64,000 bases of DNA from an uncultured Alphaproteobacteria bacterium (GCA_944391475.1 CALXTR010000004.1:25807-89806); one strand, 5' to 3'; shown: positions 42,190-46,722, counted from the first letter of the stretch. Made by a program: numbers and translations. Notes: a model not told the origin generated them from the letters alone.

Positions 42190-42260
42190 CGCAATAAAAA
42201 AACTTGAAATTTAGGGGCAGTTTATTAAAATACCGATATGTTTTTCTGAGGATTCTTGGT

Positions 42261-42938
42261 ATGAATAAGTTTATCTGGTCGTTAGTATTGCTGTTGTGCC
42301 TTGGCGGTTATGTTCAAACAACAAAGGCTGATATTACTTTTGCGGTTGATGCTGCAAATGTTGAACTGCCAGATTACAAGCTCAAGTCTATGTCCCTAGA
42401 AAAGCGCAAAAAATATTGCGAGGGTTTTGGATACAAGCTTTTAGTATGTTCGGATCCTTACATGCCTGAAAACATTTGCAGAGCTGATGAAAGCTATGTT
42501 AACAAATGTATCTGCCGACCAGAATATAAGTTGGAGTGTCTTGAAACCGACGGACTGCGGGGTGTGGGCACAAAGTGCGATGGCAAATATGCTAAGTGCT
42601 GCAATCTAATCTGCAAAAATCCGTATGCCACACTTGTAAGCTGTGAAGAGCAAGGTTTGGAAGAAATTCACAGCGAGCGCGACTACAATGAATGCGGTGA
42701 AACTTGCTATGTATGCCAAGACAGATGCACTAAAGGAGTGCCGGAAAACCAATGTCCCAACGGGCAAAAATGTATTCCATACCAAGGTGTCAACAGCCAA
42801 TTAGGGCGTCGGTGTTGCCAATGTGGATGTCCGACCGGGCAAAAAGAGTGTTTGGGTTTTTGCATTGGCAAAGACGAATGCTGTCCGGCTTGTAAAGATG
42901 GTTTCAAGTGCTCGGGCGGGGTGTGCGTCGAAAAATAA
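42261..42938 (+). CDS. Cysteine-rich secreted protein, paralogue A (about 225 aa, more than 30 Cys)
   Basis: A signal peptide (MNKFIWSLVLLLCLGGYVQTTKA) is followed by a Cys-dense mature region (for example KCDGKYAKCC, CCQCGCPTGQKEC). The N-terminal domain is similar to the ORF at 45658. Confidence 0.6.
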   Translation: MNKFIWSLVLLLCLGGYVQTTKADITFAVDAANVELPDYKLKSMSLEKRKKYCEGFGYKLLVCSDPYMPENICRADESYVNKCICRPEYKLECLETDGLRGVGTKCDGKYAKCCNLICKNPYATLVSCEEQGLEEIHSERDYNECGETCYVCQDRCTKGVPENQCPNGQKCIPYQGVNSQLGRRCCQCGCPTGQKECLGFCIGKDECCPACKDGFKCSGGVCVEK

Positions 42939-42939
42939 G

Positions 42940-44028
42940 CTATTCCTTATATCGGCGCTCAAAACGCGGATTTTTACCCAAGCGCGAAACAACTTCATAA
43001 GCTATGGTTCCGGCATCGCGTCCCATATCGTCAAGGGTATATTTTTCATCTAGAAGAATCGCCATATCGCCAACTTCAACTTGATTGACATCGGTCACAT
43101 CAACAATCAAATTATCCATCGAAACACGCCCCAAAACTCGTCCTTCTCCACGGCATCCGTCTTTAACGAAATAGACTTTCCCAACGTTAGACAGCGAGCG
43201 GGGCAAGCCGTCGCCATAGCCAATTGAGACAATCGCCAGTCTGCGGGGAGAATTGGCGCGATAGGTGGCTGAATAGCCGACAAAATCTCCTTCGGGCAAA
43301 TCGGCCAACTGCAAAACCGGCGCGGTGAGTTTGACTACCGGTTTCATGATATTTTGACGATATGGGGCCGTATTAATACCATACATAGCTGCGCCTAAAC
43401 GAACCATATCAAACTGATATTCGTTCCCTAAAAATACACCATCAGAAGCCGAAAGCGAACCGGGCAACTCTGGGAAATATTTATTACGCAATCTTTGAAA
43501 TTCGGACAACTGGTGTGCATTCATAAAATGCCCTTTTTCATCGGCACAAGCCAAATGCGACATAACAAAAGAAAAACCGTTTCTTTCTTCCTCACTCAAT
43601 TCTTGAATATCCTTTTCGCGAAAGCCCAAGCGGTTGAGGCCGGTTTCAATATGGATAACCGGTTTGATACCATCAATTTGGTGAAGTTGCCAATATCTAA
43701 ACTGCTCTAAACAGCTGATAACCGGCGTTAGCTTATGTTGTTCAAACAAAGGAAAACTATCTTCACCCATGCCTTGCAGGACATAAATTGCGGCCTCGGG
43801 CGCAACGGCGCGGACTTTGGCTCCTTCTACGCCATGGGCGACAAAAAAGTGACGGCACTGAGCATGGTGGTACAAGTAGTCGGCAATTTTTGCCGCTCCC
43901 AACCCATAGGCATCATCTTTGACTACAGCGGCGGCTATCGAATTGGCCGCCAATTTTTGCAGTTCTTGATAATTTTGCAACACAGCCGAAAGATTGATTT
44001 CAAAAACAGGTCTTGTCAAAATGCTCAT
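42940..44028 (-). CDS. alr: Alanine racemase
   Basis: AVVKDDAYGLGAAKIADYL matches the PLP-binding AVVKANAYGHG motif (lysine in VVK). A TIM barrel is followed by a C-terminal beta domain. Confidence 0.85.
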   Translation of the reverse strand: MSILTRPVFEINLSAVLQNYQELQKLAANSIAAAVVKDDAYGLGAAKIADYLYHHAQCRHFFVAHGVEGAKVRAVAPEAAIYVLQGMGEDSFPLFEQHKLTPVISCLEQFRYWQLHQIDGIKPVIHIETGLNRLGFREKDIQELSEEERNGFSFVMSHLACADEKGHFMNAHQLSEFQRLRNKYFPELPGSLSASDGVFLGNEYQFDMVRLGAAMYGINTAPYRQNIMKPVVKLTAPVLQLADLPEGDFVGYSATYRANSPRRLAIVSIGYGDGLPRSLSNVGKVYFVKDGCRGEGRVLGRVSMDNLIVDVTDVNQVEVGDMAILLDEKYTLDDMGRDAGTIAYEVVSRLGKNPRFERRYKE

Positions 44029-44067
44029 TGTTCATTATGCTCCAACAATAACAAAGGTAGTTTTTTT

Positions 44068-44820: not shown

Positions 44821-45578
44821 GTGAAAACAAAAGATTGATGCGCACACAGGCTCTTTTAGGTATAGATGCCATTAACAAGCTCCAAGCCGCAACGGTGATG
44901 ATTGTGGGATTAGGTGCAGTCGGAGGTTATGCCTTGGAAGCTTTGGCACGCTCGGGCATTGGGCATTTGATTTTGGTGGATTTTGATGTGATAGAAGAAA
45001 CTAACATAAATCGGCAAATTTTAGCTCTCTCCTCCACGCTCGGTCAGCCCAAAATTGAGGCTGCAAAAGCTCGCGTGCTTGACATTAACCCCAACTGCAA
45101 TGTCGAGACCATCTCCTTATTTGTAAACAGTGATACCATTGCTGAACTGCTTTCTCATCAGGCTGATATGGTGGTTGATGCCATTGATGCACTTAACCCC
45201 AAATGTTGTTTAATGGAGGAGCTTTACAAACGTCAAATTCCGTTTATTTCATCTATGGGGGCGGCTCTTAAAACTAATCCGGCAGCAATTAAGACCGGAA
45301 AACTTAGTCAAACAAAAAATTGCAACCTATCCAAATTTATTCGCAAGCGCTTAAAAAAACGGGGAATTGATATATCTAAAATTGAATGTGTTTATTCTGA
45401 TGAACAAATTCAACTTTCTGAGAACGCTATATTTTTAGACGAGGAAAGCCTTAATACCGAGATGAGCGCAGGGCGTCAGGGAAGAGTACGCAACACACTT
45501 GGTTCACTACCCACAATTACGGCAATTTTTGGTCTCACAATTGCAAATCGTTTGATTGAGCATATAATTAAAAATTAA
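44817..45578 (+). CDS. tcdA: tRNA threonylcarbamoyladenosine dehydratase (TcdA/CsdL, ThiF/MoeB E1-like)
   Basis: A Rossmann fold with VMIVGLGAVGGYALEALARSGIGHLILVDFDVIEETNINRQ. The start overlaps the tatD stop as ATGA. Confidence 0.7.
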   Translation: MSENKRLMRTQALLGIDAINKLQAATVMIVGLGAVGGYALEALARSGIGHLILVDFDVIEETNINRQILALSSTLGQPKIEAAKARVLDINPNCNVETISLFVNSDTIAELLSHQADMVVDAIDALNPKCCLMEELYKRQIPFISSMGAALKTNPAAIKTGKLSQTKNCNLSKFIRKRLKKRGIDISKIECVYSDEQIQLSENAIFLDEESLNTEMSAGRQGRVRNTLGSLPTITAIFGLTIANRLIEHIIKN

Positions 45579-45657
45579 CTCAAATATAGCCAACAATTGT
45601 ATTTACTTTGTAAATAATGTTATATGAAAGTGGATTTTGATTTATTAATTATAGGAT

Positions 45658-46674
45658 ATGATTATGATACGCAGATGCTTATTACTGATTTTGTTTGCAG
45701 TCGCTATAAATACTAAACCAGTATATGCGGCGATAACTTTTTTGCCAGATTGGAATAACACTGATTTAGAATTTCAACGCGATGAGCCTTTATGCATTGA
45801 GGCTGTAGATTTTAATGGGGATCCATTGTACCATATGGCCGATGGATGTCCCAAACCAAAAATTTTTGATGAATATTGCCCACACGATAGTAAGTATATT
45901 TCCAAGTGTTACTGTCCGGCTCATTACCAATATAACTGCGTATCTCCAGAACGTGGCGATGAAAGAGTGAAACAAGACGGATATGCTTCTTGCGATGGGT
46001 TGTATATCGCCTGCTGCGATGGCTCTTGCCCGAGCGGAACATCCAAAACAGATCCCGGAGGGTGTGGTGGATCAACTACTAATGGCTGCGGCGATACTTG
46101 TTATTATCCTTACCAACCTTGCTGTTATCCAGCTTCTGATGAAACTGGTTGTTCTTGCGGAACTTATACTTGCGACGATGGCTGTGGCGGCTCAAGAACT
46201 TGTTGTGCTTCTTGCCAAGATCCAGATCCGGATCCTCCGTCTAGTAGCTCATCTTCAAACTCGAGCAATTCTTCGAACTCGAGCACTAGTAGCAACAGTT
46301 GTGTAGCCGGTGGAAGCAAATCTTGTAGCGGACAGACTTCTCCTTGCGGCGCCAACCAGACACAAACAGGATCTTGTACAGACTGTTCTGGCACCAAACG
46401 GTATTCTTGTGCGAACAAAGATGACCCTAACCCTTGCGCAGGCAAAACCAGCAAAAGCTGCGAGCATGGCTGTGCATCTTATGACAGTCAATGTCCAAGC
46501 ATTTGTACATCTTGTAAGTCTGCACCTCCATGTAATGTATCCTGCCCAGCAGTACCAGACATTATTGATGGCTGCAGACGTTGTTCCAGCTGGGGATGGG
46601 AGACTGTTGGCGGTTGCAAAAAATGCCGTGTTTGTAACAGCCGCTATCAAGATAATACCCTACCTTGTAGATAA
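45658..46674 (+). CDS. Cysteine-rich secreted protein, paralogue B (338 aa), with a Pro/Asp and Ser/Asn low-complexity linker
   Basis: A signal peptide (CLLLILFAVAINTKPVYA). The N-terminal domain shares AxITF, SKCxC...Y.Y.C and CDGxYxxCC with paralogue A. The linker DPDPDPPSSSSSSNSSNSSNSSTSSNS is followed by further Cys-rich arrays. The ATG at 45664 is the better-spaced start. Confidence 0.6.
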   Translation: MIMIRRCLLLILFAVAINTKPVYAAITFLPDWNNTDLEFQRDEPLCIEAVDFNGDPLYHMADGCPKPKIFDEYCPHDSKYISKCYCPAHYQYNCVSPERGDERVKQDGYASCDGLYIACCDGSCPSGTSKTDPGGCGGSTTNGCGDTCYYPYQPCCYPASDETGCSCGTYTCDDGCGGSRTCCASCQDPDPDPPSSSSSSNSSNSSNSSTSSNSCVAGGSKSCSGQTSPCGANQTQTGSCTDCSGTKRYSCANKDDPNPCAGKTSKSCEHGCASYDSQCPSICTSCKSAPPCNVSCPAVPDIIDGCRRCSSWGWETVGGCKKCRVCNSRYQDNTLPCR

Positions 46675-46691
46675 AACCATAATTTGATACA

Positions 46692-46722
46692 ACACCCGTC
46701 AATTTTGGCGGGTGTTTTTTTA
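46692..46722 (+). terminator. Rho-independent terminator
   Basis: The hairpin ACACCCGTCAATTTTGGCGGGTGT is followed by TTTTTTT. Confidence 0.7.

Follow-up and report, generated by a model that had tools for sequence, protein, structure and literature searches.

A previously undescribed family of cysteine-rich, predicted exported proteins, some of them multi-copy and variable, in uncultured gut Alphaproteobacteria

Results

Genes and features at the locus

The 64,000-nucleotide stretch of DNA analysed here (referred to throughout as the window) comes from an uncultured Alphaproteobacteria bacterium (GCA_944391475.1, CALXTR010000004.1:25807-89806) and carries two genes, designated A and B, whose cysteine-rich and apparently exported products belong to a previously undescribed protein family. 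The domain that defines the B-type members of this family (the N-domain) has no relative in Pfam, NCBIfam or PDB. An initial annotation had described A and B as paralogues on either side of alr, tatD and tcdA, and this arrangement was borne out: both open reading frames (ORFs) were found, BLASTP aligned their products over ~150 amino acids (aa) with E = 8e-9, and Pfam identified the genes between them. The features of the locus are listed below; the promoter candidates among them are consensus pattern matches only.

42153-42187, plus strand: intrinsic terminator after accC, hairpin CTCCGATTAGCAAATCGGAG followed by T9, read from the sequence
42204-42231, plus strand: candidate sigma-70-like promoter of gene A, TTGAAA-16-TAAAAT (consensus scan, 10/12 positions)
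42261-42938, plus strand: gene A, ORF of 225 aa encoding a cysteine-rich, predicted exported, stalk-less protein
42261-42329, plus strand: putative signal peptide of A, MNKFIWSLVLLLCLGGYVQTTKA followed by DITF (sequence reading and hydrophobicity profile)
42330-42719, plus strand: N-terminal segment and shared cysteine core of A, residues 24-153 (alignments and hhalign against the B-type domain)
42720-42935, plus strand: C-terminal cysteine modules of A, residues 154-225, including a CxGxCI..CCxxC..G.C module
42940-45578, both strands: alr (minus), tatD (plus) and a ThiF-family tcdA-like gene (plus) between A and B, none a family member (Pfam: Ala_racemase_N/C, TatD_DNase, ThiF)
45541-45568, plus strand: candidate sigma-70-like promoter within the 3' end of tcdA, TTGCAA-16-TATAAT (consensus scan, 10/12 positions)
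45597-45625, plus strand: promoter-like element, TTGTATTTACTTT...TGTTATAT, resembling by eye the elements upstream of many B-type paralogues
45658-46674, plus strand: gene B, ORF of 338 aa (336 aa from ATG 45664), a B-type family member
45658-45729, plus strand: putative signal peptide of B, MIMIRRCLLLILFAVAINTKPVYA followed by AITFLPDW, read from the sequence
45730-46215, plus strand: family-defining N-domain of B, residues 25-186, 22 Cys (family alignments)
46216-46299, plus strand: stalk of B, Cys-free and of low complexity (QDPDPDPPSSSSSSNSSNSSNSSTSSNS), residues 187-214, of strain-variable length
46300-46671, plus strand: variable C-terminal head of B, 20 Cys, two six-Cys modules and a strain-variable tail
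46691-46721, plus strand: strong intrinsic terminator of B, 11-bp stem followed by a T-run

The ORF list opens gene A at TTG 42204. Because this position coincides with the promoter-like site at 42204-42231, which itself follows the accC terminator at 42153-42187, and because ATG 42261 is preceded by a GAGGA ribosome site, ATG 42261 is almost certainly the true start. The accC terminator thus separates gene A from the upstream operon. For gene B, gene callers start at the second ATG, 45664, on contigs of the same species, and the end coordinate given in the initial annotation (46722) is the end of the B terminator. The promoter-like sites and terminators suggest that A and B are transcribed separately. 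Sigma-28 and sigma-54 (flagellar) promoters were considered upstream of the family genes and rejected, as only sigma-70-like elements were found by eye. No riboswitch or RNA element was found near A or B with Rfam.

Each predicted signal peptide combines a basic n-region with a hydrophobic core and ends in a small-x-small cleavage site (...TKA|DITF in A and ...VYA|AITF in B), in agreement with the Sec signals proposed initially. A count of more than 30 Cys in each protein, also part of that description, holds for B (43 in total, 42 mature) but not for A (29 in the long ORF, 28 mature). Cysteine accounts for 12–13% of the residues of A and B. The only other ORFs of the 64-kb window with more than 6% Cys are short (61–96 aa), which leaves A and B as the only long plausible ones.

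Relationship between A and B

When the profile of the A family was compared with that of the B-type N-domain (hhalign), the probability was 95% and E = 3.8e-8, with 12 Cys columns aligned across the two families. The common skeleton, found in A and B types, is C-x9-C-x9-C-x-C-x7-C-x(12-17)-C-x6-CC-x3-C...C-x3-C, and the N-terminal signature noted initially is present as given (ITF, KCxC-x3-Y-x-[LY]-x-C and CDGxYxxCC). On this alignment evidence A and B are paralogues. Their kinship is distant: a library-wide search with the B-type profile fails to retrieve the A family. The signal peptide is followed by [IT]TFLPD[WY] in B and in most full-length matches, A has a split form of this motif (DITF-x9-LPDY), and more distant A-type members are without it.

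Protein A is conserved along its entire length, with a C-terminus that is also conserved and with no stalk, and therefore represents a separate branch. This branch is apparently single-copy. The motif QGLEEIHSERDYN, which lies within residues 24-153, is invariant throughout the A family. The exact 225-aa product occurs on at least 22 contigs of public assemblies.

Architecture of the B-type proteins

B-type proteins consist, in this order, of a predicted signal peptide, the ~160-aa N-domain with 22 Cys, a stalk and a highly variable C-terminus. In most full-length matches the N-domain directly follows the signal peptide, opening at the predicted cleavage site with a near-invariant [KA][TI]TFLPDW. 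Its motifs in B are TFLPDW, YH..xxCPxPK[IV]FDEYC, YISxCYC, GDxR, SCDGLxxACC, PGGCGG, CYYPY and DETGCSCGTYxCDDGCGGxRxCCxxC, and its invariant non-Cys residues include H59, K68, F70, D71, E72, D101, R103 and N142.

A Cys-free low-complexity linker was present in 87 of 142 sequences, with poly-Ser, (SSN)n, PEPD/TP or Asp/Asn repeats forming the stalks of relatives. Tandem Repeats Finder found no tandem DNA repeat in the stalk region of B in the window at a score of 30 or more.

Beyond the stalk, most C-termini consist of self-contained six-Cys modules of ~30–37 aa in series. One module, CxPxxDETGCxYGTxxCDDGCGGTRxCC, also closes the N-domain in a single copy; others are CVxGGSxSCxGxxSxCxxNQxQTxSCxDCSGTxxYxC and PCAGxxxxSCxxGCASYxxxCxSxCTxCK. 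The head of B in the window contains one module of 37 aa (residues 215-251) and one of 29 aa (residues 259-287), each with six Cys. Wholly different C-termini follow N-domains that are 96–100% identical in P0002, P0005, P0006, P0009 and P0016 (relatives are referred to here by P handles for proteins and L handles for loci). In P0068 the head comprises Lcl_C/DUF1566 domains (50.2 bits against a Pfam cutoff of 34.9), and in P0067 the match to Lcl_C, at 30.8 bits, is below the same cutoff. Lcl_C in these two proteins was the only Pfam match among 19 diverse relatives, and neither A nor B of the window matched Lcl_C (PF07603) in Pfam. L019-L022 and P0096 have Cys-poor C-terminal regions of ~400 aa that look beta-helix-like, with a sub-threshold match to Bactofilin.

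Extent of the family and database searches

Homologues of B formed 58 clusters among 5.8 billion proteins, and an exhaustive profile search of 1.84 billion cluster representatives gave only 75 matches, 21 of them at E ≤ 1e-30. The A branch comprised only 6 clusters (at 90% identity), profile search included. Scanning one genome per prokaryotic species yielded 18 loci, all from gut metagenome-assembled genomes (MAGs) of uncultured Alpha-/proteobacteria; the sources were human (UMGS241 and MGYG-HGUT-04444), mouse (MGBC133411), roe deer, water deer and two BRZ MAGs. These origins in human, mouse and deer guts match the host-associated lifestyle that had been proposed, and, as far as found, only one clade of uncultured, flagellated gut Alphaproteobacteria appears to have the family. 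A scan of viral contigs found no relative, so the family is not phage-borne.

The initial suggestion that the family is undescribed stands. Neither A nor B matched Pfam or NCBIfam at E ≤ 1, and PDB sequences contained no relative whether searched with single sequences or with both family profiles, the lone chance match being a tRNA ligase at E 0.8; no homology to a characterised family, which the initial annotation had named as refuting, was thus found in the three databases. All sources that name a family member call it a hypothetical protein, and no description of such proteins in gut Alphaproteobacteria was found in the literature. More specifically, neither Pfam nor NCBIfam gave a profile match at E ≤ 1 to chlamydial OmcA/OmcB, Helicobacter Hcp (Sel1), the Myxococcus cysteine-rich repeat or metallothioneins; A and B are proteins of 200–340 aa with a predicted signal peptide. 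EGF-like, granulin and TNFR modules gave no profile match and no significant structural match, and no toxin domain was found in Pfam scans of 21 diverse members. Foldseek searches of PDB with AlphaFold2 models of A and B returned nothing significant. The resemblance to eukaryotic-type disulphide modules that had been pointed out is therefore fair as a description of style but not supported as a statement of homology.

Cysteine content and predicted structure

The mature Cys count was even in 91 of 106 non-identical family proteins and ranged from 18 to 124, with a highest Cys share of 16%. Most members with an odd number were fragmentary, frameshifted or truncated at contig ends. Since the C-termini are mutually unrelated although the members are related, an even count has been re-established for each architecture, and this argues for disulphides rather than metal clusters. 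Even Cys numbers, the presence of an export signal, a high content of Tyr and Trp and the beta-hairpins of the AlphaFold2 models together point to intramolecular disulphides.

Short beta-hairpins were predicted in both models, including the C-terminal modules of A. The model of B had a mean predicted local distance difference test (pLDDT) score of 62.9, with 74–87 for residues 81-150 and 82–86 for residues 221-250; that of A had a mean of 73.4, with 79–90 from residue 91 on, which takes in its C-terminal modules.

Copy number and synteny

The closest relative of the window is the MAG BRZ_DM bin47, in which flanking DNA is 80–92% identical. It contains 8 or more B-type loci, of which one (L008) is truncated after 56 aa; other MAGs have 3, 2 and 2. 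Paralogues, whose genome-wide number the initial annotation had wanted counted, are thus numerous for the B type. The 8 or more copies of the closest MAG occur in a small genome; related assemblies include contigs of 1.3–1.9 Mb. In another species, P0002, P0005, P0006 and P0009 lie at four unrelated housekeeping loci and are nearly identical not only in their N-domains but also in the ~115 nucleotides (nt) upstream, and this points to a promoter-plus-5' cassette that was recently duplicated or spread by gene conversion.

The closest relative shares the order accB-accC-A-alr-tatD-tcdA-B with the window, and A-alr-tatD-tcdA is conserved in L002 and L024-L029. Syntenic orthologues of B occur in L002/L006, and the A orthologue of L002 has 86% protein identity. 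Relatives that are only 52% identical retain A-alr-tatD-tcdA and lack B at that place; A is therefore a stable orthologue and the adjacency of B incidental. Describing A and B as a pair was accordingly apt insofar as both flank alr-tatD-tcdA, but B is one of many dispersed copies and the stable partner of A is alr. A and alr point towards each other, their stop codons lie 1 nt apart, and the two genes are hence not co-transcribed.

Gene turnover was also apparent at an intergenic site (52630-52790) that is unoccupied in the window:

52654-52688, strand not assigned: single bidirectional terminator downstream of a flagellin gene (51247-52629), compared with L011 by blastn

At the same site in the closest MAG (L011 5747-7209), an extra B-type gene lies between two copies of the terminator, which points to gain or loss through terminator duplication or recombination.

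No secretion, immunity-like or other partner gene recurred beside family genes in six contexts, and no type V/two-partner (T5/TPS), type VI (T6) or type VII (T7) secretion system was found within ±8 kb of six loci. In the window, L001, L002, L004 and L005, the family genes are followed by convergent or unrelated housekeeping genes (e.g. tRNA synthetase, amidase), and small ORFs of unknown function lie downstream of a family gene in L003 only. In two other genomes (L003 and L011) a B-type gene comes directly after a flagellin gene, possibly by coincidence. The gene lexA is immediately upstream of a family gene on the same strand in L004 (7249-7875, B-type), L024 (2555-3211, A-type) and L025 (2351-3007, A-type), a place that is filled by accC in the window. 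In L002 (10550-13193), hydF and hydG, for [FeFe]-hydrogenase maturation, stand between B and a HAD hydrolase gene; the window has neither at the matching position (between 46674 and 46847).

Strain variation and selection

Variation within the species was followed in assemblies whose A protein is identical to that of the window. Their B alleles differ chiefly in stalk length, through (SSN)n and poly-Ser, and one is altered in the C-terminal tail. In the part of L026 and L029 that is equivalent to window 45597-45740, distinct frameshifts affect the region encoding the signal peptide of B, consisting of an additional A in an A3 run in one and of a 13-nt tandem duplication in the other (L029). 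In L029 the promoter spacer (45597-45625) is also lengthened by an insertion of 5 nt. These alleles may reflect inactivation, phase switching or assembly error.

Selection was assessed by comparing the window with syntenic orthologues. Because Nei-Gojobori estimates of synonymous divergence (dS) are inflated for proteins rich in two-fold-degenerate codons, we relied on identity at four-fold-degenerate sites and on non-synonymous divergence (dN) instead. For A, dN was 0.084 and dN/dS below 0.1, with third codon positions 52–57% identical; dN/dS was ~0.056 for the N-domain of B and 0.16 for its C-terminus. Four-fold-site identity was 0.39 with the protein conserved, and such deep synonymous divergence behind a conserved protein indicates that family orthologues are under purifying selection. 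Diversifying selection, for which a dN/dS comparison had been proposed, left no sign as point mutations between orthologues (dN/dS ~0.05–0.16, conserved parts). Diversity appears instead to arise through stalk length, module content and gene turnover; the stalk of the B orthologue, for example, is ~44 aa longer than that of B in the window.

Compared with L002 over window positions 40270-47713, four-fold-site identity was 0.69–0.81 for alr, tatD and tcdA and 0.29–0.59 for accB, accC, A, B and the HAD gene (0.29 for the last), which suggests recent exchange of the alr-tatD-tcdA block between lineages by recombination. Balancing selection was considered as a source of the excess synonymous divergence of A and B and was rejected, since the neighbouring HAD gene is equally diverged; low identity there and higher identity in alr, tatD and tcdA are the mark of a recombination mosaic and not of a property special to A and B.

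Discussion

The overall design of these proteins is of a known kind, that of variable, modular, exported binding or coat proteins, and the family itself is new. We tentatively favour, as quite possible though short of probable, a reading in which the B-type members are protease-resistant, stalked binding proteins that are secreted or held at the cell surface and combine a common base with variable heads. Essentially every Cys of A and B would be disulphide-bonded after Sec export. The 160-aa N-domain, with about 11 disulphides, would form the base and serve export, assembly or attachment to the cell surface. A flexible spacer rich in Ser, Asn, Pro and Asp, whose length varies among strains, would act as the stalk, and a rapidly remodelled C-terminus would form the head, built from shuffled three-disulphide mini-modules or, in relatives, from Lcl_C lectin-like or beta-helix-like regions. 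Such heads would bind host mucus, glycans or other cells and would vary antigenically, and dense disulphide knotting would confer resistance to gut proteases. The many scattered copies, each with its own promoter, appear to come and go among strains and may also be switched off. A, which retains just the core along with fixed C-terminal modules of its own, probably has a constant rather than a variable extracytoplasmic role.

Among known systems, the closest working parallel is the 'lollipop' adhesin Lcl of Legionella pneumophila, which is secreted by the type II secretion system and retargeted to the surface, and which consists of a signal peptide, an N-terminal helix, a stalk of variable length and a DUF1566 head (PMC11162425). 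B-type proteins likewise have a predicted signal peptide, an N-terminal element, a repetitive stalk of strain-variable length and a C-terminal head, and P0068 and P0067 have Lcl_C at the head position. In contrast to the collagen triple-helix stalk of Lcl, that of the B type is a low-complexity Ser/Asn/Pro/Asp sequence; the base is a 30-residue helix in Lcl and a 160-aa domain with 22 Cys in the B type; and the C-terminal domain of Lcl is without disulphides, whereas the head of B in the window is without Lcl_C.

Several points weigh against a stalked surface adhesin. The surface location, the adhesive or coat function and the role of the N-domain as a base are all things that we infer, and the proteins might instead remain periplasmic. 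Near the family genes there is no partner gene for secretion or anchoring, the head of B in the window has no recognisable binding domain, and Lcl_C occurs only in distant members. A catalytic or specific binding function would account for the invariant non-Cys residues of the N-domain as well. Furthermore, the frameshifted B alleles may be assembly errors, and the AlphaFold2 models are only moderately confident (mean pLDDT of 62.9 for B and 73.4 for A).

A bolder form of the same idea, which we consider unlikely, is that this uncultured gut lineage evolved a variable disulphide-knotted surface coat of its own, as a bacterial counterpart of the coat of Giardia, with the N-domain as its base. 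The variant-specific surface proteins (VSPs) of Giardia are eukaryotic proteins whose N-terminus varies and whose transmembrane anchor, at the C-terminus, is constant, and their expression is mutually exclusive. They are the closest parallel in concept, sharing with the B type a Cys content of at least ~12%, many CxxC and CxC motifs, life in the gut lumen, multiple copies, one constant and one variable end and, presumably, protease resistance and antigenic variability; the polarity is opposite, however, and there is no sequence or detectable fold relationship to the B type. A coat of this kind would make the N-domain a new handle for surface attachment or polymerisation in diderms, with its free invariant TFLPDW N-terminus acting as a donor strand or docking peptide. 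Its diversity would come from shuffling of mini-modules, concerted evolution of promoter-plus-5' cassettes and on/off switching by signal-peptide frameshifts.

An envelope-structural role, in which disulphides would stiffen the envelope from the periplasm or the inner face of the outer membrane in the manner of OmcA/OmcB, with A as the constant component, seems rather improbable to us. A and B do resemble the chlamydial proteins in being Cys-rich, apparently exported and from a host-associated diderm; neither a signal for translocation across the outer membrane nor a partner gene was found, and the linkage of A to alr, a gene for a peptidoglycan precursor, is tight and stable. That linkage loses force from the convergent orientation of the two genes. 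Even Cys numbers and self-contained six-Cys modules imply intramolecular rather than intermolecular bonds, whereas the chlamydial proteins are few, non-modular and unstalked, form intermolecular cross-links and show no homology to the family, there being no Pfam match to chlamydial outer-membrane protein families. Multi-copy, stalked proteins with one hypervariable end that are often gained and lost would be unexpected as structural components, and the presence of ftsI and anmK leaves no obvious need for a chlamydia-like substitute for peptidoglycan. OmcB is also a glycosaminoglycan-binding adhesin.

Alternatively, and we regard this too as rather doubtful, the N-domain could be a small disulphide-stabilised secreted enzyme or inhibitor, such as a hydrolase or a protease inhibitor, that is targeted to its substrate by the stalk and modules. 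The many invariant non-Cys residues of the N-domain and the invariance of QGLEEIHSERDYN in the A family would fit such a function. A catalytic domain, a Ser-rich linker and a small Cys-rich binding module are a common design of secreted glycoside hydrolases, and the order of parts in the B type mirrors that of enzymes with a catalytic domain, a linker and a carbohydrate-binding module. No likeness in sequence or fold to any enzyme or inhibitor family was found, however, and handles for export or assembly are more typically what occupies a fixed site right behind the signal peptide.

We find it quite improbable that the family consists of polymorphic toxins or bacteriocins, with an N-domain for release or target-cell entry and alternative toxic modules at the C-terminus. 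The layout, in which conserved and even near-identical N-termini lead through a linker into wholly different C-termini, is the hallmark of such systems, and several copies per genome are likewise found in CdiA, Rhs and MafB. In addition, some modules are three-disulphide beta-hairpins of the size of defensins, for which Foldseek gave a non-significant likeness to alpha-defensin (E 2.7). Unlike CdiA, Rhs and MafB, the family has no immunity genes, known toxin domains or dedicated secretion partners that we could find: in the window, L001, L004 and L005 the family genes are not followed by a conserved small gene of the immunity type, the C-termini have no known toxin domain in Pfam, and no T5, T6 or T7 secretion or Rhs context was seen. 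Neighbouring modules abut without processing sites, and Lcl_C lectin-like and beta-helix-like heads suit binding better than killing. Toxins, among the functions put forward in the initial annotation, are thus not supported.

Metal binding, put forward alongside toxins, is disfavoured. A metallothionein-like periplasmic metal buffer or store would account for a Cys content of 12–15% and for the CxC, CC and CxxC spacings, but it is very improbable given even Cys numbers in 91 of 106 members, a predicted signal peptide, abundant Tyr and Trp, predicted beta-hairpins, a large stalked modular architecture unlike any metallothionein, and the lack of a Pfam metallothionein match and of a metal-sensing riboswitch or regulator nearby. 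It is similarly hard to credit that the proteins mimic eukaryotic EGF, TNFR or granulin modules to engage host receptors, even though the organism dwells in the gut and the top Foldseek matches, none significant, were all eukaryotic extracellular disulphide ladders (TNFR1, CD40, Plasmodium MSP1-19, the EGF modules of Pfs25 and R-spondin). Among other secreted proteins with short disulphide-bridged repeats, Helicobacter Hcp and the Myxococcus cysteine-rich repeat (TIGR02232/DUF4215) are comparable; Hcp is alpha-helical, in contrast to the beta-hairpins predicted for A and B.

With up to 124 Cys, the members of this family are, to our knowledge, among the most Cys-rich bacterial proteins, and an extensive disulphide-bonded extracellular architecture of a kind usually deemed eukaryotic would here occur in an anaerobe-associated bacterium. 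The copy number and rapid strain change suggest a role in the contact of this common gut lineage with host mucus, the immune system, phages or other microbes. If the adhesin or coat reading is true, the family would offer a handle on the ecology of a lineage that has no cultured representative among the matches found, a new protease-resistant scaffold of ~30-aa mini-modules with three disulphides each, and possibly a new mode of protein attachment at the surface of diderm cells.

Other features of the window

Between A and B, the true tatD gene extends from 44068 to 44820 (250 aa), as in relatives, and the listed 361-aa ORF (43735-44820) is over-extended across the gap between alr and tatD; the tatD stop overlaps the tcdA start by 4 nt. 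A large flagellar gene set (7794-21083, 33936-35054, 38780-39985 and 51247-52629) comprises flhF, flhA, a sigma-54 activator, fliH, fliG, fliF, two flgE-like genes, flgD, fliK and two flagellin genes. The window begins with a class A RNase P RNA that is cut by its start (1-317, minus strand), and a tRNA-Phe(GAA) lies at 36412-36487 (minus strand). Sizeable ORFs without a Pfam match are found at 5291-6967 (minus), 21649-22551 (plus), 36573-38708 (minus), 47715-48314 (plus), 52790-53797 (minus) and 61256-62352 (plus); the 711-aa ORF beside flgE and the 199-aa ORF following the HAD gene are kept in relatives. The window ends within a Bat-like operon (DUF4381, VWA), the first part of which occupies 62475-63937. 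In L003 a flagellin gene and then a B-type gene come after this operon, and from this order another paralogue may lie just past the end of the window.

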